Sequence record: OZ035755.1
Source of the DNA: Kayfunavirus AN17P1
Length of the DNA stretch: 39,656 bases
Direction: 5' to 3' (one strand)
Part shown: in pieces, positions 1 through 26,887 of the stretch
Numbering within the stretch: position 1 is the first letter of the stretch
How the letters are laid out: the number at the start of each line of letters is the position of its first letter
Position numbers and translations under genes: made by a program
Notes under the pieces: generated by a model
The model's database searches: none
Told to the model about the DNA's origin: nothing
What the model saw: the letters and a program-made list of their open reading frames with translations, nothing else

Positions 1-29
1 TACAAAACGATTAAAGGAGGTGGTAAAAC

Positions 30-293
30 ATGACGCAGATGGACTTAGAGAAGTTCCTCTTGATGCTGGATACTGAACGTGCTAGACTCATGCTGCAAGA
101 CCTGCGGGATGACTCTAAGCGTTCACCTCAGCTTTACAACGCCATTGAGAAGCTACTGGCTCGTCACAACTTCGTGCTAAGCAAGGTGTCTGTTGACGAG
201 AAGACGCTCGCTGATATGGAGGCTTTGAACAGGGAGTACGATAAGGTGCTCTCAGCTACTGAGGATAACGACACCGGGTATGGTGTACAGTAA
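30..293 (+). CDS. gene 18: Terminase small subunit / DNA maturation protein A (T7 gp18-like), 87 aa
   Basis: Strong SD AAAGGAGG upstream of ATG; size and position immediately before the spanin pair and terminase large subunit match T7 gene 18 (89 aa). Confidence 0.7.
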   Translation: MTQMDLEKFLLMLDTERARLMLQDLRDDSKRSPQLYNAIEKLLARHNFVLSKVSVDEKTLADMEALNREYDKVLSATEDNDTGYGVQ

Positions 294-346
294 GTGTTAG
301 ACTCAAGGTCATTACTATATGTAGTGGCCTTTATGGTTAACACACA
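294..346 (+). promoter_or_regulatory. Conserved imperfect stem-loop, putative RNase III processing site (R18.5-like)
   Basis: Motif AGACTCAAGGTCATT...GTGGCCTTTATG with outer arms GTGTTA/TTAACAC; near-identical elements at 9451-9492 and 16631-16677; T7 has RNase III sites at the equivalent positions. Confidence 0.4.
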
Positions 347-394
347 CTACGGGCGGAGACGCTACGTGGATTCTGAGAAATGAGGAGGGCAACT

Positions 395-832
395 ATGCTC
401 GAACTTTTACGTAAAGCAATCCCGTGGCTGGTTGCAGGACTCCTGTTCTGTTCTGGCTACTGGGTGGCAGACAATAAGTGGGAGGCGAAGGTAAACAATG
501 AGTACATCACGAAACTTGAGGCACGAGAGAATCAACGGGCTGCTGTCCAAGGTGAAATCAACAAAGTGTCAGCCGAGTGGCAAGACAAGATGTCCGCGCT
601 GGAAGGCTCTACTGATAGGATTATTGCTGACCTTAACCGCGATAACAAGCGGCTGCGCGTCCGAGTCAACACCTCAGGTCTCACCGAGTCAGATGTCAGT
701 AGATGCTTCCCTAATGGTAGAGTCGAACTACACCCAGAAACTTCTAAAAGTCTTATCCGATTAACTCAGGAGGCAGACCTTAAGGAGAAGGCGCTTCAGG
801 ACACAATAAGGAGGCTCCAAGGTGTTAAGTGA
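395..832 (+). CDS. gene 18.5: i-spanin (Rz-like, T7 gp18.5 homolog)
   Basis: Translation MLELLRKAIPWLVAGLLFCSGYW... resembles T7 gp18.5 N-terminus (MLEFLRKLIPW...) as I recall it; N-terminal TM segment; SD GAGGAGG 7 nt upstream of ATG 395 (the track's ATG 380 lies inside the SD). Confidence 0.8.
   Translation: MLELLRKAIPWLVAGLLFCSGYWVADNKWEAKVNNEYITKLEARENQRAAVQGEINKVSAEWQDKMSALEGSTDRIIADLNRDNKRLRVRVNTSGLTESDVSRCFPNGRVELHPETSKSLIRLTQEADLKEKALQDTIRRLQGVK
498..764 (+). CDS. gene 18.7: o-spanin (Rz1-like lipoprotein, T7 gp18.7 homolog) embedded in +1 frame of 18.5
   Basis: 88-aa ORF wholly inside the i-spanin gene in another frame; lipobox-like LTAITSGC followed by Pro/Ser-rich region; same embedded arrangement as T7 18.5/18.7. 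Confidence 0.75.
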   Translation: MSTSRNLRHERINGLLSKVKSTKCQPSGKTRCPRWKALLIGLLLTLTAITSGCASESTPQVSPSQMSVDASLMVESNYTQKLLKVLSD

Positions 833-1259
833 TTACTACAAAGTGGACCCGGCTAGTCCATCCGGTCTGGTCTCCGTTAGGACTGGAAAGCCTGTGGGGA
901 CATTAAGTCGGATGGGATATTGGATAGTACAGACACGAAGTCTAGGCAGTAAGCGGGCCCATCGTGTGATATGGGAACTAACCAATGGTCCTATACCGCA
1001 TGGTATGCAAATAGACCACATCGACAGGAACCCTAGCAATAATACCTTAAGTAACTTACGGCTCGTTACTGCCGCTGAAAACACTTGGAATACTGGTAGC
1101 CATTATGACTCTAAGACAGGAGTGAAGTGCGTTACCCGTCACCAGAATGGTTATAGGATTCAGGTTAAACGCGGGAATGCCTATATGCGAACAACACGTC
1201 CCACTTTAGAGGAGGCTATCGCTGTCCGGGACCTAATGCTGGAGGGACTATATGTCTAA
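822..1259 (+). CDS. HNH homing endonuclease (HNH plus AP2-like DNA-binding region), 145 aa
   Basis: Motif [41 protein letters not shown] typical of phage HNH endonucleases; GTG start with SD AAGGAGG; overlaps the 3' end of 18.5 and the 5' end of terminase; T7 has no gene here. Confidence 0.8.
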
Positions 1260-3018
1260 GAAAACACCCGCTGAAAGACAGGCAGAAATGGTCCAAAGGA
1301 TGAGGGACGACTTCGTGTTCTTCATCTTCGTTCTCTGGAAAGCACTAAGTCTTCCGGTTCCAACCCGCTGCCAGATAGATATGTGTAAGAAGCTGGCTGC
1401 TGGGGATAATCGCCGCTTCATCCTTCAGGCGTTCCGTGGTATTGGCAAGTCGTTTTTGACCTGTGGCTTTGTGGTCTGGAAGCTATGGAATAACCCAGAC
1501 TTGAAGTTCATGATTGTGTCGGCCTCAAAGGAACGAGCCGATGCGAACTCCATCTTCATCAAGCGAATCATCGACCTCATGCCTCAGCTTCGGGAACTCA
1601 AACCTAAGCAGGGGCAGCGAGATGCGGTTATCAGCTTCGACGTTGGACCAGCCAAGCCAGACCACTCACCTTCGGTTAAGTCCGTTGGTATCACTGGTCA
1701 GTTGACTGGTAGTCGTGCTGACATCCTGATTGCCGATGACGTGGAGGTTCCGAACAACTCAGCGACTCAGGCTGCACGAGACCGTCTATCAGAGCTTGTG
1801 AAAGAGTTCGACGCTATCCTGAAGCCGGGAGGTACGATCATCTATCTGGGTACTCCTCAGAACGAGATGACCCTGTACCGTGAGCTGGAAGGTCGTGGGT
1901 ACACCACTACTATCTGGCCCGCTCGTTATCCACGCGACAGGAAGGACTGGCAGTCTTACGGCGACCGTCTGGCTCCTATGCTTCAGGCAGAGCTGGAAGA
2001 GGACCCTGAGTCCTTCTACTGGCGTCCGACTGATGAAGTACGCTTCGATGATACGGACCTGAAGGAACGTGAGCTGTCCTACGGTAAAGCTGGCTTCGCT
2101 CTACAGTTCATGCTTAACCCGAACCTGAGTGATGCCGAGAAGTACCCTCTTAAGCTCCGTGACCTTATCGTAGCCGACTTGGACCCAGCGTCCAGCCCAA
2201 TGGTCTACCAATGGTTGCCGAACCCTCAGAACAAGCGTGAGGACGTTCCTAACGTTGGACTCATGGGTGACTCGTACCACACGTATCAGACTGTAGGTTC
2301 TGCCTTCAGCTCATACACCCAGAAGATTCTGGTCATTGACCCTAGTGGTCGTGGTAAGGATGAAACTGGATATGCGGTACTGTACCAGCTCAACGGCTAC
2401 ATCTTCGCTATGGAAGTTGGTGGCATGCGTGGTGGTTATGAAGACTCTACGCTGGAAGCCTTGGCTAAGATTGGTCGTAAGTGGAAGGTCAACGAGTACG
2501 TCATTGAGGGTAACTTCGGTGATGGTATGTACCTTGAGTTATTCAAGCCTGTAGCGGCCCGTATCCATCCTTCGTCTGTAACTGAAGTGAAGAGTAAGGG
2601 TCAGAAAGAACTCCGCATCTGTGACGTTCTGGAGCCTATCATGGGGTCTCACCGACTTATCGTTAACGCTGCTGCTATAGTCCAAGACTACCAGTCTGCC
2701 TCTGATAAGGATGGTGTTCGTAACCCTATCTACTCTCTCTTCTATCAGATGACACGTATCTCTCGTGAGCGTGGAGCCTTGGCACACGATGACCGACTTG
2801 ATGCGCTGGCTATCGGTGTACAGTTCTTCGTTGAGTCTATGGCTAAGGATGCTAGCAAAGGCGAACGTGAAGTCACTGAGGAATGGCTGGAGGAACAGAT
2901 GGAGAACCCACGGAAAGGCTTCGAGTCCATCCACACTGAGTTCTGGGACAATGGGGTCCGGGTAACTCACGATACGGACGACGAGCTTGGACTAGGGGCA
3001 TACGTTACGTTACACTAG
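1252..3018 (+). CDS. gene 19: Terminase large subunit (T7 gp19 homolog), 588 aa
   Basis: Length and position match T7 gp19 (586 aa); Walker A-like GIGKS and ATPase/nuclease-type motifs (LIADDVEVP); strong SD GGAGGGACTAT before ATG. Confidence 0.95.
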
Positions 3019-3027
3019 CTGAATGAA

Positions 3028-3076
3028 TAACTATAGGTGAAAGCTGCATGAATAAGCAGTTAGTAACCTATAGTTA
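3028..3076. repeat. Perfect 11-bp inverted repeat TAACTATAGGT / ACCTATAGTTA with 27-nt loop
   Basis: Arms at 3028-3038 and 3066-3076 are exact reverse complements; arms contain the promoter core ACTATAGG; lies directly after the terminase stop. Confidence 0.5.
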
Positions 3077-3112
3077 CTACCAGTCTAACATACTGTTTTA
3101 TAAGGAGTTTGG

Positions 3113-3136
3113 ACTTAACTATCACTATAGGGAAGA
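3113..3136 (+). promoter_or_regulatory. Phage RNAP promoter (phiOR-like, right end)
   Basis: TTAACTATCACTATAGGGAAG matches the 11-member consensus CTAAACTATCACTATAGGGA; +1 G at about 3130. Confidence 0.75.
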
Positions 3137-3315
3137 CCCCCGGTTACTTATAGTATTACTGTAGTGAATATACATATGCAGACTTTATTCAAGACCTTAG
3201 GAGGCAGACTCCGAGTTCTTACCTAAGGCTTGCACCGATGGAAGGAGGGTGATATTAATCATAATCCCTCCAATACAGATAGTCACCGACCATAGATACA
3301 GGAGGTATGTAGCAT

Positions 3316-3474
3316 ATGGCAAAGACCAAAGCTGTACTTAAAGCTCTGGCGACCAATCGAGCTACATACAGGTTTCTTGCTGCTGTTCTACTTGCTGCTG
3401 GCGTTACTGCTGGAAGTCAGTGGGTCGGGTGGGTCGAGACTCTCGTATGTTCTCTGGTCTCTCAGTGTAATTAA
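3316..3474 (+). CDS. Small membrane protein, 52 aa (gene 19.5 position)
   Basis: ATG with SD ACAGGAGG; translation MAKTKAVLKALATNRATYRFLAAVLLAAGVTAGSQWVGWVETLVCSLVSQCN has one hydrophobic helix; below the 60-aa track cutoff so read directly from sequence. Confidence 0.45.
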   Translation: MAKTKAVLKALATNRATYRFLAAVLLAAGVTAGSQWVGWVETLVCSLVSQCN

Positions 3475-3510
3475 CGCAATCATGATAACAATCAACGAAA
3501 GGAGGTAGGG

Positions 3511-3579
3511 ATGGACGAGGAGTCTTATGGGCCGTTCTCTGACGAAGATTATCAGACGGAGTGGGAATACGCGCATTGA
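3511..3579 (+). CDS. Very small acidic ORF, 22 aa (MDEESYGPFSDEDYQTEWEYAH)
   Basis: ATG preceded by SD AAAGGAGG at good spacing; no other support. Confidence 0.25.
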   Translation: MDEESYGPFSDEDYQTEWEYAH

Positions 3580-3583
3580 AGAC

Positions 3584-3624
3584 CTAAGGTCAGTTCATAG
3601 CTGACGCTACTCTACTGACCTTAG
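3584..3624. repeat. Inverted repeat CTAAGGTCAGT / ACTGACCTTAG (11-bp stem, 19-nt loop) near the right genome end
   Basis: Exact reverse-complement arms at 3584-3594 and 3614-3624; no downstream U-tract. Confidence 0.45.
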
Positions 3625-3699
3625 CTACTGTAGTCAAGGACTTTAGGTAACACCTTAATAGAAGCTCACTTAGGGTCATCCTACTTATTGGTCTATCCT

Positions 3700-4100
3700 A
3701 GTGTCGCCTGACCTACGGTCCTTGACCTACAGTAGCTGCCACCTACAGTATTCGATGAGTTTTGGACCAAAAGTTTGAGACCACATCTCACAGTTCAAGA
3801 ACCTCAAGTCTCCCCATAGGCCCTCTTTCAGTCCAGACCAAAGGCCCTACCCCAGTCTATCATAAGGTTAGACCGATGGTCAAGACTTCAGGTCAACGAT
3901 AGGTTGTGGCTATGGCTTAGGGAAGGACGATAGGTAGGGACTATTGGTCTGTCTTTGAGTCTCTATCTGTATCAGACCTTGAGTCACTACCTACAGTCTA
4001 ACTACCTACAGTCTAACTACCTACAGTCTAACTACCTACAGTCATCGACCATCGGTAATGCCGCTACCTACAGTCAGAGACCTACGGTTAATAGACACAA
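3700..4100. repeat. Genome terminus region: putative direct terminal repeat flanked by CCTAC(A/G)GT short repeats
   Basis: TCTCACAGTTCAAGAACC...CCCCATAGG at 3786 resembles the T7 (TCTCACAGTGTACGG) and T3 left-end sequences as I recall them; repeated GACCTACGGT / CACCTACAGT motifs on both sides mirror the CCTAAAG arrays flanking the T7 terminal repeat; no CDS. Repeat length cannot be read from a collapsed assembly. Confidence 0.5.
3986..4044. repeat. Tandem array, about 3.9 copies of 15-bp unit ACTACCTACAGTCTA
   Basis: Exact copies at 3986-4000, 4001-4015, 4016-4030 and a partial copy at 4031-4044. Confidence 0.9.
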
Positions 4101-4340
4101 GGCTATAGACTTAAGGTCTAAGACATGTTAGTCAAAGACTACATCCTCTTACACCATGGGGCCGACGATAGCTTAATCAATATTATTTCAAATTACCTAT
4201 TGACTATAGGTCCAGATTATGGCCTAATAGCTTCCGTCAACACGACACGGCAACAACCGGATAGTGAAGACGCCTGGTCATCCCGGTTAAGTAGACAGCC
4301 TGATAAGTCATACGAACAACAGGCAGATGACAGAAAGTAG

Positions 4341-4378
4341 TTGACAAGCAGTAACGATAAGATGTAAGCTGTACCACA
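4341..4378 (+). promoter_or_regulatory. Host sigma70 early promoter candidate (T7 A2/A3-like)
   Basis: Perfect -35 TTGACA (4341-4346), about 18-nt spacer, -10 TAAGCT, then GTACCACAT as in T7 A3 (TACGAT-GTACCACAT) as I recall it; about 200 nt upstream of the first early gene. Confidence 0.5.
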
Positions 4379-4486
4379 TCAAAACAACGGTGACGACCGA
4401 CACTGAAACGGTCTACCTGAAGTCCTCTGACTGAAGGGAATGCTCTTTAACAATCTGGATAAACTCTTAATGTGCGCCGATAGCGA

Positions 4487-4543
4487 CTAACTACAGGGTC
4501 TTTGAGTCTACATCTGAAGGCCCTGACTGATAGTCACTAACAA
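4487..4543 (+). promoter_or_regulatory. Conserved leader element, copy 1 (TAACTACAGGGTC ... CCTGACTGATAGTCACTAA), possible RNase III / translation-initiation leader
   Basis: Shares a 19-nt exact block CCTGACTGATAGTCACTAA and a TAACTACAGG(G)TC block with 4842-4892; ends about 17 nt before the start codon at 4560; small CAGGG/CCCTG stem. Confidence 0.5.
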
Positions 4544-4559
4544 CCTAAGAGGATTCATT

Positions 4560-4838
4560 ATGAGACTGAACAAAGCTACAGCAGAAGCCTTTCGCAAGGA
4601 GCTTGAATCAAGATTATTGTGTGGAGTGGCGGAAGGAGCCGCTCGATATAAAGAGAATGGTCTAACGTTCAAGCGCTTTATGTGGGATTGCTATCACGGA
4701 GTGGGCCATAAAAAGTTGCAGGAAATAATCACCAGCAACAATGCAGAAGTGCAAGTGATAGGAGGATATATGGCTAACGTGAAGGATTCACACATCGAGA
4801 CCATGCTTAAGAATGCACTTAACGATGTAGCCTACTAG
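4560..4838 (+). CDS. Hypothetical early protein, 92 aa; first gene to enter the cell, upstream of ocr
   Basis: SD AAGAGG before ATG; uninterrupted ORF; sits behind a copy of the same leader element as ocr; no recognisable family. Confidence 0.6.
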   Translation: MRLNKATAEAFRKELESRLLCGVAEGAARYKENGLTFKRFMWDCYHGVGHKKLQEIITSNNAEVQVIGGYMANVKDSHIETMLKNALNDVAY

Positions 4839-4841
4839 TGA

Positions 4842-4892
4842 TTAACTACAGGTCGTTAGACTGATAGCGGCCTGACTGATAGTCACTAAAAC
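4842..4892 (+). promoter_or_regulatory. Conserved leader element, copy 2, upstream of ocr
   Basis: Contains CCTGACTGATAGTCACTAA (4871-4889) and TTAACTACAGGTC; paralogous to 4487-4543. Confidence 0.5.
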
Positions 4893-4918
4893 ATACTTAA
4901 CTTTGAGAGGATATAACT

Positions 4919-5251
4919 ATGGAACGTAACGCTAACGCATACTATGAGCTGCTGGCTGCAACCGTTGAAGCATTTAACGAGCGTATTCAGTACGACGAAA
5001 TAGCTGAAGGCGATGACTACCACGATGCGCTGCATGAAGTCGTAGACGGTCAGGTTCCGCACTATTACCACGAGATTTTCACGGTGATGGCTGCTGATGG
5101 TATTGACCATGAGTTTGAAGACTCTGGGCTGATGCCTGATACCAAGGATGTGACGCGTATACTGCAAGCTCGCATCTATGAGGCGCTTTATAACGACGTG
5201 GCTGATAGCTTGGATGTAGTCTGGTTTGAGGCTGAAGAGGGAGACGAGTGA
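4919..5251 (+). CDS. gene 0.3 (ocr): Ocr (T7 gp0.3 homolog), DNA-mimic anti-restriction protein, 110 aa
   Basis: Translation ...[46 protein letters not shown]... is closely similar to T7 Ocr as I recall it ([45 protein letters not shown]); acidic C-terminus. Confidence 0.9.
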
Positions 5252-5406
5252 TGGTAACTTACGGTCTCTGTCAGCATCACGTCACCAACGCCCGGAGTAT
5301 GGTCAAGACCGGGCAATTAAACCACGATGCGACTATGCGTCACCTGAAAGCGGTCTATGAGGGCCACAAGCGCATACACGACAGTTTGCACGCTGAGGAT
5401 AAGTAA
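5251..5406 (+). CDS. gene 0.4: Small early protein, 51 aa, T7 gp0.4-like (FtsZ inhibitor family)
   Basis: ATGA start/stop overlap with ocr; translation [51 protein letters not shown] shares length and YGL...LKxxYExxKxI pattern with T7 gp0.4 as I recall it. Confidence 0.45.
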   Translation: MVTYGLCQHHVTNARSMVKTGQLNHDATMRHLKAVYEGHKRIHDSLHAEDK

Positions 5407-5519
5407 CGTGTATCATAGCCTGACCATAACGCTGACAGGTGGGTACTGAGTGATAGATGAGAGGTCATCGACTGATAGGTGGCCTCAAAGATTACCACTT
5501 GAATTAATAGGAGTTAACT

Positions 5520-5609
5520 ATGAGTGTGGGATATTGGGTCTGCCTAGCGCCAGTTATCTGGATGATAGGCTATGGGTTATACGACTGTATTAAACGGAAA
5601 TCACTATGA
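5520..5609 (+). CDS. Small hydrophobic ORF, 29 aa
   Basis: ATG after TAGGAG; translation MSVGYWVCLAPVIWMIGYGLYDCIKRKSL; stop overlaps the next ORF start. Confidence 0.25.
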   Translation: MSVGYWVCLAPVIWMIGYGLYDCIKRKSL

Positions 5610-5803
5610 GTCTTGCACTATTGATAGCAATAGGCTATGGACTTATCGCCTACGTGCTGGTGAGTGACATTAACAAGGCGCGTAAAGTCTACAAATTCAA
5701 CTATGTACGTCTGGGCCGCTGGACCGTACGTCAACCTAACGGACGATTCATGCGCAACCTAGCGAACGTATGGGATATAGCAACCTTAGGGAGCAAACTG
5801 TAA
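5606..5803 (+). CDS. Early membrane protein, 65 aa
   Basis: N-terminal TM segment (LALLIAIGYGLIAYVLV); position equivalent to the T7 0.5/0.6 region. Confidence 0.45.
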   Translation: MSLALLIAIGYGLIAYVLVSDINKARKVYKFNYVRLGRWTVRQPNGRFMRNLANVWDIATLGSKL

Positions 5804-5853
5804 TGCGCAATACTTGTAGCAAGCGCACTCAAATATCTTCAGGAGAATAAGTA

Positions 5854-6075
5854 ATGAATATAATTAAGGCAGCCACGGAGTCTATTAGCGCCATATTCCT
5901 ACCACGGCAAGAGGTATGTACCTCCCACAAGTTCATACTATCTTGCGTTGTCGGCGACGAGTTTGATGGTTTTGATAAGCTCGTTGTATGTGATTATTGT
6001 GGTCAAGAAGCTATACAGCACTCAAACGGTAAATTCGAACTAATTAACGAGGAAGGGGACGGCGATGGTGAATAA
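5854..6075 (+). CDS. Early Cys-containing protein, 73 aa; N-terminus resembles the start of T7 gp0.7
   Basis: SD CAGGAGAATAAGTA-ATG; N-terminus MNIIKAATESISAIFLP resembles T7 gp0.7 MNITDIMNAIDAIKALP as I recall it; four Cys including CDYC; far too short for a kinase. Confidence 0.45.
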   Translation: MNIIKAATESISAIFLPRQEVCTSHKFILSCVVGDEFDGFDKLVVCDYCGQEAIQHSNGKFELINEEGDGDGE

Positions 6076-6358
6076 CAAAAACAACGTATTTGGATACTTG
6101 GTGACAGGCTACCGACACGGAACCTCAAGTCACACCGCACGTCAACAGCAGGAGCGTGACAGGGTACTGCAAGCAAGACTCCGAGCTGAGGGCCATAAGT
6201 CCGAACTGTTGTGTCTGGCGTATGGTGGACGACCAATCACTGATGATGGTAAACTTCTGGTCTCAGGCTGGAAGGCGATAGACCAACGGTCAACCATCAA
6301 GCACACGACCCATGGTGACTTCAGCCATCTTCACGCTAACCCACTGATATGCAAGTGA
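6065..6358 (+). CDS. Hypothetical early protein, 97 aa
   Basis: ORF overlapping the previous stop; last gene before RNAP; no family recognised. Confidence 0.45.
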   Translation: MVNNKNNVFGYLVTGYRHGTSSHTARQQQERDRVLQARLRAEGHKSELLCLAYGGRPITDDGKLLVSGWKAIDQRSTIKHTTHGDFSHLHANPLICK

Positions 6359-6363
6359 TTCTG

Positions 6364-6387
6364 ACTTAACTATCACTATAGGACTCA
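6364..6387 (+). promoter_or_regulatory. Phage RNAP promoter upstream of the RNAP gene
   Basis: CTTAACTATCACTATAGGACTC fits the consensus; +1 G about 6381, 75 nt before the gene 1 ATG. Confidence 0.65.
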
Positions 6388-6455
6388 AGGTCTAAGACTC
6401 CAAGTGAAAGACCAAAGAGACTTTAAGTGAAAGACTAATAACAAGGACTTTAAGT

Positions 6456-9137
6456 ATGAGCGTCATCTCTATTGACAAACACGACTTCTCTGATGTGTCG
6501 AACGCCATTGAGCCGTTTAACCTGCTGGCTGACCACTACGGGCAAGACCTTGCAGTCAAACAGCTTCAGCTGGAGCACGAGGCATACACTGAAGGCGAGC
6601 GACGTTTCATCAAAAACCTTGAGCGACAGACTGAGCGCGGGGAACTGGCAGACAATCAGGTAGCCAAGCCTTTGATGCAGACTCTGGTCCCTAAGATTGC
6701 GCAAGCCGTCAGGGAGTGGCATGAAGGTCCAGACGGGAAGCTGTCAACCTCTCGTCCGAGCGTAGCGTTCACCATGTTAAGCACTGAAGAGAAGGCCGTC
6801 AAGGACCGCTCTCTTCGCATCTCCTGCGAGTCTGCTGCGGTTATCATACTGAAGGTCATCCTATCCAAGCTGGTCAAACCTGAAGGTATACCGATTACAC
6901 CGATGGCCTCCGCGATAGGTCGCACACTTGAGGATGAAATCCGATTCGGTCGCATTCGTGACAAGGAGAAGGAGCACTTCAAGAAGGCGATAGCTGATAA
7001 CCTGAACAAGAGAGCCGGGGCATCATACAAGAAAGCCTACATGCAAGCGGTCGAGACATCCATGCTGGAGCAAGGCCAACTAGAAGATGCGTGGGGAACT
7101 TGGAGTCCGACCGAGGCTGTCCACGTTGGAATCAAGATGCTGGAGATTGTCATCCAGTCAACACAACTGGTCGAGCTTAAGCGTTACGGTGCTGGCAATG
7201 CAGCGGCTGACGTTGAGATGGTCCACCTGTCAGACTTCTGGGTCAAGAAGATGACACAACGCGGCTTCAGCCTTGCGGGTATCGCTCCAGTCTACCAACC
7301 TTGCGTAGTTCCACCTAAGCCGTGGACTGGTGTCGTAGGCGGTGGGTACTGGGCCAAAGGTCGCAGACCATTACCACTGATTCGCTTAGGGTCTAAGTCT
7401 GCGGTGGCACGTTACGAAGACGTGTATATGCCTGAAGTCTATGACGCTGTTAACATAATCCAGAATACACCTTGGAAAGTGAACAAGAAGGTTCTGGACG
7501 TGGTGAACATGGTCGAGAAGTTGAACAACACGCCTATTGATGACATCCCTCAGATGGAGCCACTGAAGCCTGAAGAATATGCGGGTGAGACTGAAGAGGA
7601 ACTCAAGGCGTGGAAGAAAGCGGCTGCTGGTATCTATCGCCGCGAGAAGGCCAGACAGTCACGCAGATTGTCGCTGAGCTTTATCGTTAACCAAGCGAAC
7701 AAGTTCTCTCAGTTCAAGACCATCTGGTTCCCGTATAACATGGACTGGCGCGGTCGCGTCTACGCTGTGCCGATGTTCAACCCTCAGGGTAACGACATGC
7801 AAAAGGGTCTCCTGACTCTGGCAGTCGGTAAGCCTATTGGTGCTGATGGTTTCAAATGGCTGAAGGTCCACGGTGCAAACTGTGCGGGTGTCGATAAAGT
7901 AACCTTCGAGGAGCGCATCAAGTGGGTGGAAGATAACCACGACAACATCATGGCTACCTCTAAGGCACCGATGGACAGCATTGAGTGGTGGGGAAAGTTA
8001 GACTCTCCGTTCTGCTTCCTAGCGTTCTGCTTCGAGTATGCCGGCGTAATGCATCACGGATTGTCTTACTCCTGCTCGCTGCCGATAGCTTTCGATGGGT
8101 CCTGCTCTGGGATTCAGCACTTTAGCGCGATGCTTCGTGATCACATCGGTGGACATGCAGTAAACCTGACGCCTTCCGGTAAGGTCCAAGACATCTACCG
8201 CATCGTGTCTGACCGCATTGAGGAAGAGCTTAAAGTCCTGCTGGTTAACGGCACGGACAACGAGATGGTAACTCACGAGGACAAGAAAACTGGTGAGATT
8301 ACCGAACGTCTCAAGCTGGGGACACGAGAGCTGGCCCGGCAGTGGCTGACTTACGGTATGTCACGCAAGGTTACTAAGCGCTCAGTCATGACTCTGGCCT
8401 ATGGGTCGAAAGAGTACGGCTTTGCAGACCAAGTTTATGAGGACATCGTGATGCCAGCGATTGACTCAGGGTCTGGCGCTATGTTCACTGAACCAAGCCA
8501 AGCGTCCTGCTTCATGGCTAAGATGATTTGGGAAGCTGTGAGTGTGACCGTAGTTGCTGCGGTTGACGCGATGAAGTGGCTTCAAGGTGCTGCCAAGCTG
8601 CTGGCGGCTGAAGTGAAGGACAAGAAGACTGGAGAAATCCTGAAGCCTTGCCTTCCGGTACACTGGGTCACACCTGATGGGTTCCCGGTCTGGCAGGAAT
8701 ACCGCAAGAAGGATACCACTCGTCTGAACCTGATGTTCTTAGGGTCATTCAACCTTCAGCCTACCGTCAACAAAGGCACGAAGAAGGAGTTGGATAAGCA
8801 CAAGCAGGAGTCAGGAATTAGCCCGAACTTCGTCCACTCACAAGATGGTAGCCATCTCCGCAAGACTGTAGTCCACACTCACCGTAAGTATGGCGTGATG
8901 TCGTTCGCAGTGATTCACGATAGCTTCGGGACCATCCCGGCTGACGCTGAATATCTGTTCCGTGGTGTCCGTGAGACGATGGTCGAGACCTACCGCGATA
9001 ACGATGTGCTGCTTGACTTCTACGAGCAGTTTGAATACCAACTTCATGAGAGCCAGCGCGACAAGTTGCCTGAGCTTCCGAAGAAAGGTAAACTGAATAT
9101 TGAGGACATTCTATCTTCAGACTTTGCATTCGCTTAA
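6456..9137 (+). CDS. gene 1: T7-type single-subunit DNA-dependent RNA polymerase, 893 aa
   Basis: Collinear similarity to T7 RNAP as I recall it (AIWFPYNMDWRGRVYAV, HGANCAGVDK, SPFCFLAFCFEYAG, SCSGIQHFSAMLRD, IHDSFGT, C-terminal FAFA). Confidence 0.97.
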   Translation: MSVISIDKHDFSDVSNAIEPFNLLADHYGQDLAVKQLQLEHEAYTEGERRFIKNLERQTERGELADNQVAKPLMQTLVPKIAQAVREWHEGPDGKLSTSRPSVAFTMLSTEEKAVKDRSLRISCESAAVIILKVILSKLVKPEGIPITPMASAIGRTLEDEIRFGRIRDKEKEHFKKAIADNLNKRAGASYKKAYMQAVETSMLEQGQLEDAWGTWSPTEAVHVGIKMLEIVIQSTQLVELKRYGAGNAAADVEMVHLSDFWVKKMTQRGFSLAGIAPVYQPCVVPPKPWTGVVGGGYWAKGRRPLPLIRLGSKSAVARYEDVYMPEVYDAVNIIQNTPWKVNKKVLDVVNMVEKLNNTPIDDIPQMEPLKPEEYAGETEEELKAWKKAAAGIYRREKARQSRRLSLSFIVNQANKFSQFKTIWFPYNMDWRGRVYAVPMFNPQGNDMQKGLLTLAVGKPIGADGFKWLKVHGANCAGVDKVTFEERIKWVEDNHDNIMATSKAPMDSIEWWGKLDSPFCFLAFCFEYAGVMHHGLSYSCSLPIAFDGSCSGIQHFSAMLRDHIGGHAVNLTPSGKVQDIYRIVSDRIEEELKVLLVNGTDNEMVTHEDKKTGEITERLKLGTRELARQWLTYGMSRKVTKRSVMTLAYGSKEYGFADQVYEDIVMPAIDSGSGAMFTEPSQASCFMAKMIWEAVSVTVVAAVDAMKWLQGAAKLLAAEVKDKKTGEILKPCLPVHWVTPDGFPVWQEYRKKDTTRLNLMFLGSFNLQPTVNKGTKKELDKHKQESGISPNFVHSQDGSHLRKTVVHTHRKYGVMSFAVIHDSFGTIPADAEYLFRGVRETMVETYRDNDVLLDFYEQFEYQLHESQRDKLPELPKKGKLNIEDILSSDFAFA

Positions 9138-24490: not shown

Positions 24491-24514
24491 ACTAAACTAT
24501 CACTATAGGGAGAC
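24491..24514 (+). promoter_or_regulatory. Phage RNAP promoter (phi10-like), best consensus match
   Basis: ACTAAACTATCACTATAGGGAGACC; only copy with the full TATAGGGAGA initiation region; about 100 nt before the capsid gene. Confidence 0.85.
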
Positions 24515-24615
24515 CAAGAGACAGACTCAAGGTTTCCATATTACTTCAGTCCATACGGATTGGGCGTACAGTAAGTAATAAACTTTATATTTCAATTGAA
24601 TAGGAGAATTATCAT

Positions 24616-25671
24616 ATGGTAAACGTTCCGGGTCAGAAAATTGGTACAGACCAAGGTAAAGGCAAAGGCAAATCTGGTTCCGACGCTCTGGCGTTGTTCC
24701 TTAAGGTATTTGCTGGTGAAGTACTGACCGCATTCACTCGCCGCTCTGTAACTGCCGACAAGCATATTGTCCGTACCATTCAGAACGGTAAGTCTGCTCA
24801 GTTCCCGGTCATGGGTCGCACCTCTGGTGTGTATCTGGCTCCGGGTGAGCGACTGTCCGATAAGCGTAAAGGCATCAAACACACCGAGAAAGTGATTACC
24901 ATTGATGGTCTGCTGACTGCCGATGTGATGATTTTCGACATTGAAGACGCGATGAACCACTATGACGTGGCTGGCGAGTATTCCAACCAGCTAGGCGAAG
25001 CGCTGGCTATCGCTGCTGATGGTGCTGTTCTGGCTGAAATGGCTATCCTGTGTAACCTACCTGCAGCTTCCAACGAGAACATCGCTGGTCTAGGCACTGC
25101 GTCCGTACTGGAAGTTGGTGCCAAGGCTGACCTGAACACCCCTGCTAAACTGGGTGAAGCAATCATCGGTCAACTTACCATCGCTCGTGCGAAGCTGACC
25201 TCCAACTACGTACCTGCTGGCGACCGTTACTTCTACACCACGCCTGACAACTACTCTGCGATTCTGGCCGCTTTGATGCCTAACGCTGCTAACTACGCTG
25301 CTCTGATTGACCCTGAGACGGGCAACATCCGTAACGTAATGGGCTTCGTTGTTGTTGAGGTTCCGCACCTGACTCAGGGTGGTGCTGGTGAGACTCGTGG
25401 TGACGATGGTATCACTATCGCTTCCGGTCAGAAACACGCATTCCCAGCGACTTCTAGCGATACCGTTAAGGTTGCTCTGGACAACGTTGTGGGTCTGTTC
25501 TCTCACCGTTCTGCGGTGGGTACCGTTAAACTGCGTGACTTGGCGCTGGAACGTGACCGTGACGTCGATGCTCAGGGCGACCTGATTGTTGGTAAGTACG
25601 CTATGGGTCACGGTGGTCTGCGTCCTGAAGCAGCGGGAGCACTGGTTTTCACAGCAGCGTCAGCGGATTAA
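24616..25671 (+). CDS. gene 10: Major capsid protein 10A (T7 gp10A homolog), 351 aa
   Basis: Near-collinear identity blocks with T7 gp10A as I recall it (LALFLKVFAGEVLTAF, HTEKVITIDGLLTADV, AILAALMPNAANYAALIDPE, HRSAVGTVKLRDLALER, KYAMGHGGLRPEAAGA). Confidence 0.97.
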   Translation: MVNVPGQKIGTDQGKGKGKSGSDALALFLKVFAGEVLTAFTRRSVTADKHIVRTIQNGKSAQFPVMGRTSGVYLAPGERLSDKRKGIKHTEKVITIDGLLTADVMIFDIEDAMNHYDVAGEYSNQLGEALAIAADGAVLAEMAILCNLPAASNENIAGLGTASVLEVGAKADLNTPAKLGEAIIGQLTIARAKLTSNYVPAGDRYFYTTPDNYSAILAALMPNAANYAALIDPETGNIRNVMGFVVVEVPHLTQGGAGETRGDDGITIASGQKHAFPATSSDTVKVALDNVVGLFSHRSAVGTVKLRDLALERDRDVDAQGDLIVGKYAMGHGGLRPEAAGALVFTAASAD

Positions 25672-25934
25672 CGACCTTTAAGGCCCTCTCTACCGAGGGT
25701 CCTACCTTAGAGACGTATAGTTCTACGGTGGGAACCAGCTTGAAGGTTGACTTCCCTGAGCTTTCAGATGTGACCGACTGGTCGCTGCTTGATGTTGCTA
25801 CGCCTGATGGTGTTAGTTACTCCCGTAGAACCAACAGTCTCTACTTCAAGGCCACCTCTGGCGTGGAAGGTCTAGTGATTGTTGAGTATGACGGTTCGCC
25901 TGTGCGTTCCTTCAACGTATCTTTCACAAACTAA
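25644..25934 (+). other. gene 10B: Putative -1 programmed frameshift site (G GUU UUC) and minor capsid 10B extension
   Basis: GGTTTTC lies 6 codons before the 10A stop, as in T7 (GTG GTT TTC AAA as I recall it); the -1 frame is open from the site to TAA at 25932-25934, adding about 94 aa; the track ORF 25728-25934 is part of this frame. Confidence 0.45.
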
Positions 25935-25938
25935 TTGA

Positions 25939-25977
25939 AACCCCTTGGGTGCCTTCGGGTGCTTGAGGGGTTTTTTG
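25939..25977 (+). terminator. T-phi-like terminator hairpin
   Basis: AACCCCTTGGGTGCC-TTCG-GGTGCTTGAGGGGTTTTTTG: G-U-containing stem plus U-tract, resembling T7 T-phi (AACCCCTTGGGGCCTCTAAACGGGTCTTGAGGGGTTTTTTG) as I recall it; immediately after the capsid region. Confidence 0.75.
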
Positions 25978-25991
25978 CTTAAGGAGGGACT

Positions 25992-26081
25992 ATGGTCCTT
26001 ATTTACACAGGGTTAGCACTATTCGTCTTATTCTGGGCGTACCTTCTGTCCAGCTCACCGTCTAGTGCCTATGACCGTTAA
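25992..26081 (+). CDS. Small membrane peptide, 29 aa (MVLIYTGLALFVLFWAYLLSSSPSSAYDR)
   Basis: Strong SD TAAGGAGGG before ATG; one TM helix; between T-phi and gene 11. Confidence 0.35.
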   Translation: MVLIYTGLALFVLFWAYLLSSSPSSAYDR

Positions 26082-26093
26082 GGAGTAAAACCT

Positions 26094-26660
26094 ATGGCTC
26101 AATATATTCCACTGAATGCTAACGATGACTTAGACGCCATCAACGATATGCTAGCAGCTATCGGTGAACCAGCAGTCCTACAGCTTGACGAGGGGAACGC
26201 TGACGTATCGAACGCTCAACGTATCCTGCATCGTGTCAATCGTCAGGTCCAAGCTAAAGGATGGAACTTTAACATTAATGAAGCTGCTGTCCTGACACCT
26301 GATGTCCAAGACAACAGGATTCGATTCCTGCCGTCATACCTTCGTGTAATGACTGCCGGGGCCACCAGCTACTACAGCAACATGGGTGGATACCTATACG
26401 ACCTGTCCACTCAGTCAACCACTTTCACCGACCCTATAACGGTAGAGCTTGTTGAGATGAAACCGTTCTCTGAGATGCCTGTGGTATTCAGGGACTACAT
26501 CGTTACCAAGGCCAGCCGTGAGTTCAACGCTAAGTTCTTCGGTAGCCCAGAGTCTGAACTGTACCTTCGTGAGCAGGAAGCAGAACTCTATCAGCAGGTC
26601 ATGGAATACGAGATGGACACTGGTCGCTACAACATGATGTCCGACATCGGGAGGGACTAA
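26094..26660 (+). CDS. gene 11: Tail tubular protein A (T7 gp11 homolog), 188 aa
   Basis: Similarity to T7 gp11 as I recall it (ANARRILN.INRQIQ..GW.FNI.E, IVTKASR.FN..FFG.PE, MEYEMD.G.YNM). Confidence 0.9.
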   Translation: MAQYIPLNANDDLDAINDMLAAIGEPAVLQLDEGNADVSNAQRILHRVNRQVQAKGWNFNINEAAVLTPDVQDNRIRFLPSYLRVMTAGATSYYSNMGGYLYDLSTQSTTFTDPITVELVEMKPFSEMPVVFRDYIVTKASREFNAKFFGSPESELYLREQEAELYQQVMEYEMDTGRYNMMSDIGRD

Positions 26661-26887
26661 TGGCTAGTCACAACCTGAAGATTCACCGCCAGCACTTTGG
26701 TCCGGTACAACTAGGTCTAAAGACAGCAGAGCTGAGACTTAACGACCGGGACTTTAAGGTTGGCGATTGGCTTATCCTGAATGAGTGGGACAACGGGTAT
26801 ACTGGACAACAGGTAGCACGTAAGGTTGTCCACATTGCTGACGTTGGTGACATCGCTGAGGGATACGTCCTAATGAGTATGATTTAA
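26660..26887 (+). CDS. DUF3850-like (ASCH/PUA-fold) small protein, 75 aa, inserted between tail tube genes
   Basis: SD GGGAGGGA; motif LKIHRQHFGPVQLGLKTAELRLNDRDFKVGDWLILNEWD fits the DUF3850 signature as I recall it; T7 has gene 12 directly after gene 11. Confidence 0.6.
   Translation: MASHNLKIHRQHFGPVQLGLKTAELRLNDRDFKVGDWLILNEWDNGYTGQQVARKVVHIADVGDIAEGYVLMSMI

Follow-up and report, generated by a model that had tools for sequence, protein, structure and literature searches.

Background

The C-terminus of the T7 protein 10B is surface-exposed and has been used for display. T7 gene 10 carries a heptanucleotide slip site in which X_XX is G_GU and which is decoded by bacterial ribosomes, and a CCCC in the terminator, which lies more than 200 nt further along, takes part in a long-range stimulation that is unexplained (PMC5009743). 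In T7, 10B amounts to about 10% of the gene 10 translation products (Slootweg 2006, PMC1635266), and its extension is stated not to be an Ig-like domain (PMC5009743). In T3, frameshifting places an Ig-like 10B extension on a fraction of the capsid proteins (PMC5009743; bioRxiv 10.64898/2026.06.25.734500). For K1F it was reported that GFP, Hoc, BACON or Ig-like adhesins attached to the end of g10b, the −1 frameshift product, lead to viable decorated phage (PMC6277420, PMC13370021).

Closer to the phage analyzed here, the database record of Citrobacter phage CR8 contains a joined CDS with a predicted −1 internal frameshift and a marked ‘tttt’ run. The record gives ‘matches in mass spectrometry analysis’ for 10B and makes no statement of extension or junction peptides; the CR8 genome announcement is silent on 10B, and the przondovirus assembly paper mentions sequencing-error frameshifts only. 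Escherichia phage Peacock, which is 93% identical, annotates the same joined CDS as ‘minor capsid protein’ and refers to CR8 in a note. The downstream domain (termed type B in the following) was named putative minor capsid protein in Pectobacterium phages (PMC7693777), and most database records enter it as a separate hypothetical ORF. Because of the Peacock and CR8 annotations and the Ig-like class of T3, a frameshifted Ig-like 10B as described in this work is already known from relatives. Our additions are modest: frame constraint in the linker, the association of heptamer and extension, a predicted Ig-like fold for which there is no Pfam model, and a hairpin anchored to the stop codon of 10A.

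Gene 10 region and proposed slip site

The analyzed stretch of DNA (“the window”, 39,656 bases) represents a nearly complete and circularly permuted genome of a T7-like phage, with the large terminase at positions 1252-3018 and an 893-aa ORF at 6456-9137 which probably encodes the RNA polymerase. In the gene 10 region many Kayfunavirus (K1F-like) genomes, with Escherichia, Enterobacter, Salmonella, Klebsiella and Citrobacter as hosts, share 93-96% identity with the window, the top match being Escherichia phage 216Ecol046PP with 95.8%. All features discussed below lie on the plus strand. By reading of the sequence, a phi10-like phage RNA polymerase promoter, ACTAAACTATCACTATAGGGAGA (…TCACTATAGGGAGA), is placed at 24491-24513, where it would drive gene 10; we take it to resemble the T7 class III promoter consensus. 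A Shine-Dalgarno sequence AGGAG (24602-24606) was read 9 nt 5′ of the gene 10 ATG. Gene 10A itself (24616-25671 including the stop codon, taken from the ORF list and Pfam) encodes the major capsid protein of 351 aa, which matches Pfam Gp10A-like (E 4.5e-106), is about 95% identical to PDB entry 9vvq, and reaches E 4.7e-146 to T7 10A structures.

The proposed −1 shift site is the slippery heptamer G GUU UUC (25644-25650), which reads Val-Phe in the 0-frame and departs from the canonical X XXY YYZ pattern. In the 39.6-kb window GGTTTTC occurs as a single copy with both strands counted, compared to 3.8 copies expected from shuffles. The register is ctG GTT TTC, followed by the six sense codons ACA GCA GCG TCA GCG GAT and by the 10A stop TAA (25669-25671). 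After a −1 slip decoding would resume at CAC 25650 and run through 94 sense codons to TAA 25932-25934, which leads to a predicted 10B of 345 + 94 = 439 aa with the slip-junction peptide (YAMGHGGLR)PEAAGALVFHSSVSGLTTFK. The chance of an open run of 94 codons is roughly 0.01 by the rough estimate (61/64)^94. Three nucleotides past the 10B stop a T-phi-like intrinsic terminator begins (25937-25976), with a 17-bp stem and a UUCG loop; its hairpin covers 25937-25974, its T-run 25971-25976, and a CCCC stretch lies at 25941-25944.

An earlier note on this DNA had placed GGTTTTC six codons before the 10A stop in the T7 register, with a −1 frame open for about 94 codons to the TAA at 25932, a 10B of roughly 439 aa and a 10B stop directly before a T-phi-like hairpin; positions, translation and the spacing of 3 nt agree with this. 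The note had also called the extension longer than the one of T7. This holds by either count (94 versus 56 codons from the slip, or 88 versus 53 aa as 10B minus 10A), but the note had mixed both measures.

Coding potential of the −1 frame

To describe the constraint on the extension we compared the window with 13 close relatives by Nei-Gojobori counting; every pair contains the window sequence, so the pairs are phylogenetically non-independent. The dN/dS value of the extension is 0.17 in the −1 frame, while the two remaining frames give 2.6 and 1.1. No premature stop was found in the extension among 19 unique type-B relatives, and all insertions and deletions in the alignment of these 19 sequences are whole numbers of codons. 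Judged by these substitution counts, the extension is under purifying selection in the −1 frame only. The constraint which the earlier note had expected for the extension frame across relatives is thus found, and the early −1 stops which it had named as contrary evidence are absent from the 19 type-B sequences. Its main prediction, a long 10B extension deduced from slip site and open frame, gains support from this constraint, from the heptamer conservation and co-occurrence reported below, and from the annotation of relatives.

The same frame could also be regarded as an independent small gene, which would start at GTG 25728 and yield a free protein of 68 aa that is not fused to 10A. Gene callers do report homologues as stand-alone ORFs of 54-87 aa, and nearly all of the folded domain (extension residues 18-94) is located downstream of 25728. 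Against this stands that no Shine-Dalgarno sequence precedes GTG 25728 in the window, and that no ATG, GTG or TTG occurs there in the −1 frame between 25629 and 25728. In other type-B lineages the position of the GTG reads GTA, GCT or GAT; this lack of conservation argues against the stand-alone ‘hypothetical protein’ of most records. The 19 start-less codons between the 10A stop and GTG 25728 (extension codons 8-26) have a dN/dS of 0.09 in the −1 frame, and tblastn identity to KP32-type sequences begins already at residue 1 past the slip, both of which speak against a separate gene, as does the co-occurrence of the heptamer with the extension. A free Ig-like domain of 68 aa would furthermore lack an evident means of capsid attachment. 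We regard an independent gene as quite unlikely and favor −1 frameshifting at 25644-25650 as the origin of 10B, to which we assign a probability of roughly 0.88.

Predicted linker and Ig-like domain of the extension

The extension was modeled with AlphaFold from a shallow alignment of 19 sequences, resulting in a mean pLDDT of 80 for the best model and of 67-72 for the other four. Residues 1-17 are disordered in the model with a pLDDT below 50, and residues 21-93 form a seven-strand β-sandwich with a block pLDDT of 87-91. When the model was compared to the PDB by Foldseek, the Ig-like domain of lambda gpV ranked second; in a viral library the best match was the ‘minor capsid protein’ of Pectobacterium phage PP81 (E 9e-9). 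On the basis of the AlphaFold model and the Foldseek matches, the extension is predicted to consist of a flexible tether of about 17 residues and an Ig-like domain of 77 residues. In the translated −1 frame the putative linker (extension residues 1-17, HSSVSGLTTFKALSTEG) corresponds to 25650-25700 and overlaps the last 7 codons of 10A. The predicted C-terminal Ig-like β-sandwich (residues 18-94) together with the TAA stop corresponds to 25701-25934.

With regard to protein families, extension residues 15-94 match positions 2-82 of the 82 positions of the PHROG 7473 profile (E 1.6e-35), a family whose function is listed as unknown. The window extension has no Pfam family at an E-value of 1 or below, and a Pfam scan of 19 family members returned just weak, sub-threshold Big_3 matches (E 0.0025). 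A PDB sequence search with the profile of the extension family gave nothing significant. An exhaustive profile search matched a BACON-repeat protein with E 2e-12, for which hhalign gave a probability of only 50%; the Pfam BACON model (PF13004 / PF19190) is matched by none of the family members. Two assignments were rejected. Membership in Big_2 (PF02368) obtained an hhalign probability of 0.3% against the T3-type Big_2 extensions, and a tail of the T7/K1F type is contradicted by the motif TLTPxQxAARTRAAN, which is present in K1F, T7 and the two T7-like loci L017 and L032 and absent from the window extension.

Extension types and heptamer conservation in relatives

We compared 78 related loci drawn from IMG/VR and annotated GenBank records. 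Across these phages three unrelated cassettes are found between the slip site and T-phi. The T7/K1F type, found in T7, K1F and part of the genus, has 44-56 codons and the motif …TLTPxQxAARTRAAN…. The Big_2 type carries the Pfam Big_2 Ig-like domain as in T3, and its slip site is usually C CCA AAG or A AAG G. Type B is the cassette of the window. About 130 Kayfunavirus records contain it with an identity above 80%, and about 320 records of Klebsiella phages (Przondovirus, including KP32), Pectobacterium phages and others with an identity of about 40-50%; Citrobacter phage CR8 has it as well. Identity to the window extension exceeds 90% in many of the Kayfunavirus records and is about 42-57% in the CR8-like and KP32-like sequences.

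As a side observation, the interval between slip site and T-phi can also contain a single Big_2 domain or two of them, or else a module in which Big_2 is combined with an SGNH-like region and which measures about 480 aa. The long −1 ORFs of three further loci (L029, L052, L056) were considered as extensions and rejected, as their frames simply continue into gene 11.

The Val codon GTT of the heptamer is invariant in all 27 unique Kayfunavirus 10A sequences. Codon invariance applies to just 3 of the 25 conserved Val columns in 10A, and the Ala, Gly and Ala codons flanking the heptamer vary. The TTC half of the heptamer represents weak evidence, because this Phe codon is invariant at 8 of the 10 conserved Phe columns of 10A. 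Over about 75 related loci, NGTTTTC is present in every one that has a T7/K1F-type or type-B cassette. If gene 11 starts 60-85 nt past the 10A stop, so that only the terminator fits in between, the Val-Phe position mostly reads GGTCTTC; the remaining loci without a cassette have GGTATTC, GATCTTC, GGTGTTC, GGTCTTT or GGTTTAC. The single exception to the co-occurrence of heptamer and cassette is L019, a K1F-type locus in which the frame is broken by a 1-nt deletion. The slip site is kept beyond what the amino acids require, and it is confined to loci with an extension. While one must keep in mind that the compared sequences share ancestry and are not phylogenetically independent, the tests agree over several genera.

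These data also bear on the idea that the −1 frame is what remains of a cassette acquired by recombination, in decay or not expressed, with the heptamer retained solely on account of preferred Val-Phe codons. The invariance of TTC at most conserved Phe columns would fit such a remnant, and the extension is absent from many Studiervirinae and lost or broken in two natural variants (L015, L019). The latter suggests that the extension may be dispensable in the laboratory. What speaks against decay is the strong frame-specific purifying selection over lineages whose protein sequences diverge by about 50%, and the invariance of GTT in spite of the variable Val codons elsewhere in 10A. Moreover Kayfunavirus, Caroctavirus, Przondovirus and Pectobacterium phages have retained the type-B domain at this one locus. 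In our view a remnant is very improbable.

A change at the RNA level was considered as well, in which the phage RNA polymerase slips on the run of four T and a minority of mRNAs is one U short. Such a view can refer to the short homopolymer at the site and to its being marked as a feature in the CR8 record. Transcriptional slippage is not known from runs shorter than about 7 identical bases, and the four T are too short for it. The conserved stretch in addition comprises all of the heptamer and keeps one codon register, which is what re-pairing of tRNAs predicts. The T7 site with the same heptamer was studied experimentally and is treated as ribosomal (PMC5009743). An origin of 10B from slippage of the polymerase has next to no probability in our estimate, and frameshifting by the ribosome remains the favored reading.

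RNA elements and proposed mechanism

A predicted RNA hairpin (AGGCCCUC-ucuacc-GAGGGuCCU, 25681-25703) is a candidate stimulator. It begins 10 nt past the 10A stop and 30 nt past the slip site, and with −12.6 kcal/mol it falls into the top 3% of the 36-nt windows within 10A. No structure starts at the usual distance of 5-9 nt from the slip at the window site, and the predicted hairpin lies at a greater distance from the slip than a classical stimulator would allow. The CR8-like and KP32-like lineages possess stronger hairpins of wholly different sequence with the same start 9-10 nt after the 10A stop. Measured from the slip site, these stop-anchored hairpins lie at 22 to 30 nt, varying by lineage. 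The T7-like loci L017 and L032 have strong hairpins at the equivalent position, K1F and T7 weak or modest ones, and loci with a Big_2 cassette and an A AAG site have none there. RNAalifold with 19 sequences gave a weak consensus for the hairpin, since the three lineages cannot be aligned at the nucleotide level; its conservation was judged by position and stability in place of covariation. An Rfam scan of 25400-26150 led to chance-level matches alone.

The terminator provides a second candidate element. Its outer stem including the CCCC is identical to that of T7 T-phi, and it is located about 290 nt from the slip compared to more than 200 nt in T7. As heptamer, register and the CCCC-bearing terminator stem match T7, tandem −1 slippage of the T7 type is most likely the mechanism in the window. 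By analogy with T7 we infer a frameshift efficiency of the order of 10%, and the hairpin at 25681-25703, the terminator CCCC or both may act as stimulators. The idea that a ribosome queued behind another one terminating at the 10A stop drives the slip was dropped, because the distance between slip and stop varies (3, 6 or 7 codons) and is shorter than the ribosome footprint.

According to the proposed mechanism most ribosomes would read 24616-25671 and produce 10A of 351 aa. A minority would slip one base back with tRNA-Val and tRNA-Phe on GUU UUC. Tandem re-pairing could then move tRNA-Val from GUU to GGU and tRNA-Phe from UUC to UUU, so that reading would continue at CAC 25650. The slipped ribosomes would end at TAA 25932 and release a 10B of 439 aa, composed of the capsid body with HK97 fold, the linker and the Ig-like β-sandwich. 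10B would assemble together with 10A, so that some of the 415 capsid subunits would bear an outward-facing Ig-like module, whose most likely role would be that of a weak accessory adhesin directed at carbohydrate or host-surface polymers.

Potential function and implications

Ig-like modules like this one have been connected with adherence to mucin or to host surfaces. The earlier note had expected the extension to decorate the capsid surface; display of the Ig-like domain on the outside of the capsid is what the T7 display systems and the K1F g10b fusion experiments lead us to infer. Other Ig-like decorations of phages, among them the 10B domain of T3, suggest by analogy a role as an accessory adhesin. 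We further put forward, as a tentative and rather doubtful proposal, that the type-B extension represents a distinct Ig-like family outside the present classification, with neither a Pfam model nor a solved structure, and acts as a capsid-displayed adhesin for glycans or the host surface. Its synthesis may be tuned by the stop-anchored hairpin, which would have been maintained through sequence turnover in three lineages, and the interval from slip site to T-phi could represent a swappable “display cassette” locus.

For annotation the analysis implies that the 68-aa ‘hypothetical protein’ entered in most records of Kayfunavirus and Przondovirus ought to be joined to gene 10 as its −1 frameshift product. 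It also indicates an Ig-like module on some of the capsid subunits of many coliphages and of Klebsiella and Citrobacter phages that are considered for therapy. The C-terminus of the window 10B would represent a natural low-copy display site, as used in K1F. The understanding of frameshifting in T7-like phages is left unchanged by the present case.

Comparison with known systems

T7 resembles the window in the identical heptamer and register near the 3′ end of gene 10 and in the order promoter phi10, gene 10, T-phi and gene 11. It differs in the extension, which in T7 comprises 56 codons after the slip, is rich in Ala and Glu and contains the motif TLTPAQEAARTRAAN, whereas in the window it runs to 94 codons and includes an Ig-like domain. 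There is no similarity between the two extensions past roughly the first 11 residues, which are shared with the K1F type. The distance from slip to stop is 3 codons in T7 and 6 in the window. T3 (Teetrevirus) shares −1 frameshifting and a C-terminal Ig-like domain, which with about 86 aa is comparable in size to that of the window, but slips at C CCA AAG, and its domain belongs to Pfam Big_2 (E 3.5e-10).

K1F, the type species, is a member of the same genus and its g10b has the same heptamer; in contrast to the window, its extension is short and T7-like, with 44 codons past the 10A stop (…TLTPQQKAARTRAAN…), and lacks the Ig-like domain. The closest agreement is observed for CR8, KP32, Peacock and PP81, which carry the PHROG 7473 domain at the same locus behind the same heptamer, with essentially no difference to the window.

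Cassette organization between the slip site and gene 11

We compared the interval from the 10A stop codon to gene 11 across the collected gene 10 loci L005-L082. The stretch from the slip site to the T-phi-like terminator behaves as a swappable cassette in these loci. If the cassette is empty, the interval measures only 60-85 nt. A short tail of the T7/K1F type brings it to approximately 195 nt, and a type-B extension or a T3-like Ig-like domain (Big_2) to approximately 320-330 nt. In locus L031, where two Big_2 domains follow each other, the interval reaches approximately 590 nt. The slip site itself differs too: most Big_2 cassettes are reached through A AAG G or C CCA AAG in place of G GUU UUC.

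Altered loci occur among the relatives as well. In L019 the loss of a single nucleotide at the stop codon of 10A leaves the K1F-type extension unreachable by a −1 shift, and an HNH endonuclease gene is inserted 3' of the terminator in L023.

A stable hairpin is predicted shortly behind the 10A stop codon of the window (25681-25703, plus strand), with equivalents in loci L018, L021, L025 and L069. In three type-B lineages with wholly different sequences such a predicted hairpin starts 9-10 nt past the stop codon, in one of them with a UUCG loop. It is the distance from the stop codon that is constant here, not the distance from the slip site.

A long −1 frame in a metagenomic T7-like phage

A long variant was observed in a metagenomic T7-like phage (L087, positions 241-2681; also L086, L044 and L054; IMG/VR contigs 3300034349_000001 and 3300034127_000003). 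At the end of its capsid gene stands G GTT TTT, and the −1 frame continues for approximately 480 codons past this heptamer, ending shortly before gene 11. This frame codes for a Big_2 domain, then for a region in which GDS(L) and DGTH motifs occur, and finally for another C-terminal region. These motifs are typical of SGNH hydrolases; the region carrying them had no match in Pfam. The first Big_2 strand has neither a start codon nor a Shine-Dalgarno sequence in front of it. The product may be an enzyme that is shown on the capsid via frameshifting.

Capsid structure and genome layout

A capsid structure is available for a very close relative, since the 347-aa chain in PDB entry 9vvq, deposited as “Minor capsid protein”, is approximately 95% identical to 10A of the window (24616-25668, plus strand). 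The chain contains no extension residues.

Viewed over positions 1-6500, the gene map of the window is a circular permutation of the usual T7-like map, with the large terminase at 1252-3018 and an 893-aa ORF, probably the RNA polymerase, at 6456-9137. It is therefore likely that the physical ends of the genome fall within the window.

Additional reading frames around gene 11

An insertion of approximately 100 nt separates the T-phi-like terminator from gene 11 in the window and houses a hydrophobic ORF of 29 aa (MVLIYTGLALFVLFWAYLLSSSPSSAYDR; 25992-26081, plus strand) with a strong Shine-Dalgarno sequence. Searches of Pfam and PHROG returned no match for it. Among the relatives fetched it was found only in L003 and L006 and, as a fusion, in L015, where a deletion joins it to a truncated type-B 10B extension and the terminator is lost.

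A further ORF of 75 aa with DUF3850/ASCH domains (26660-26887, plus strand; E = 1.9e-19) is placed between the tail tubular genes 11 and 12. The close relative Peacock likewise carries an ORF between these genes, whereas K1F, the type species of the genus, has none at this position.
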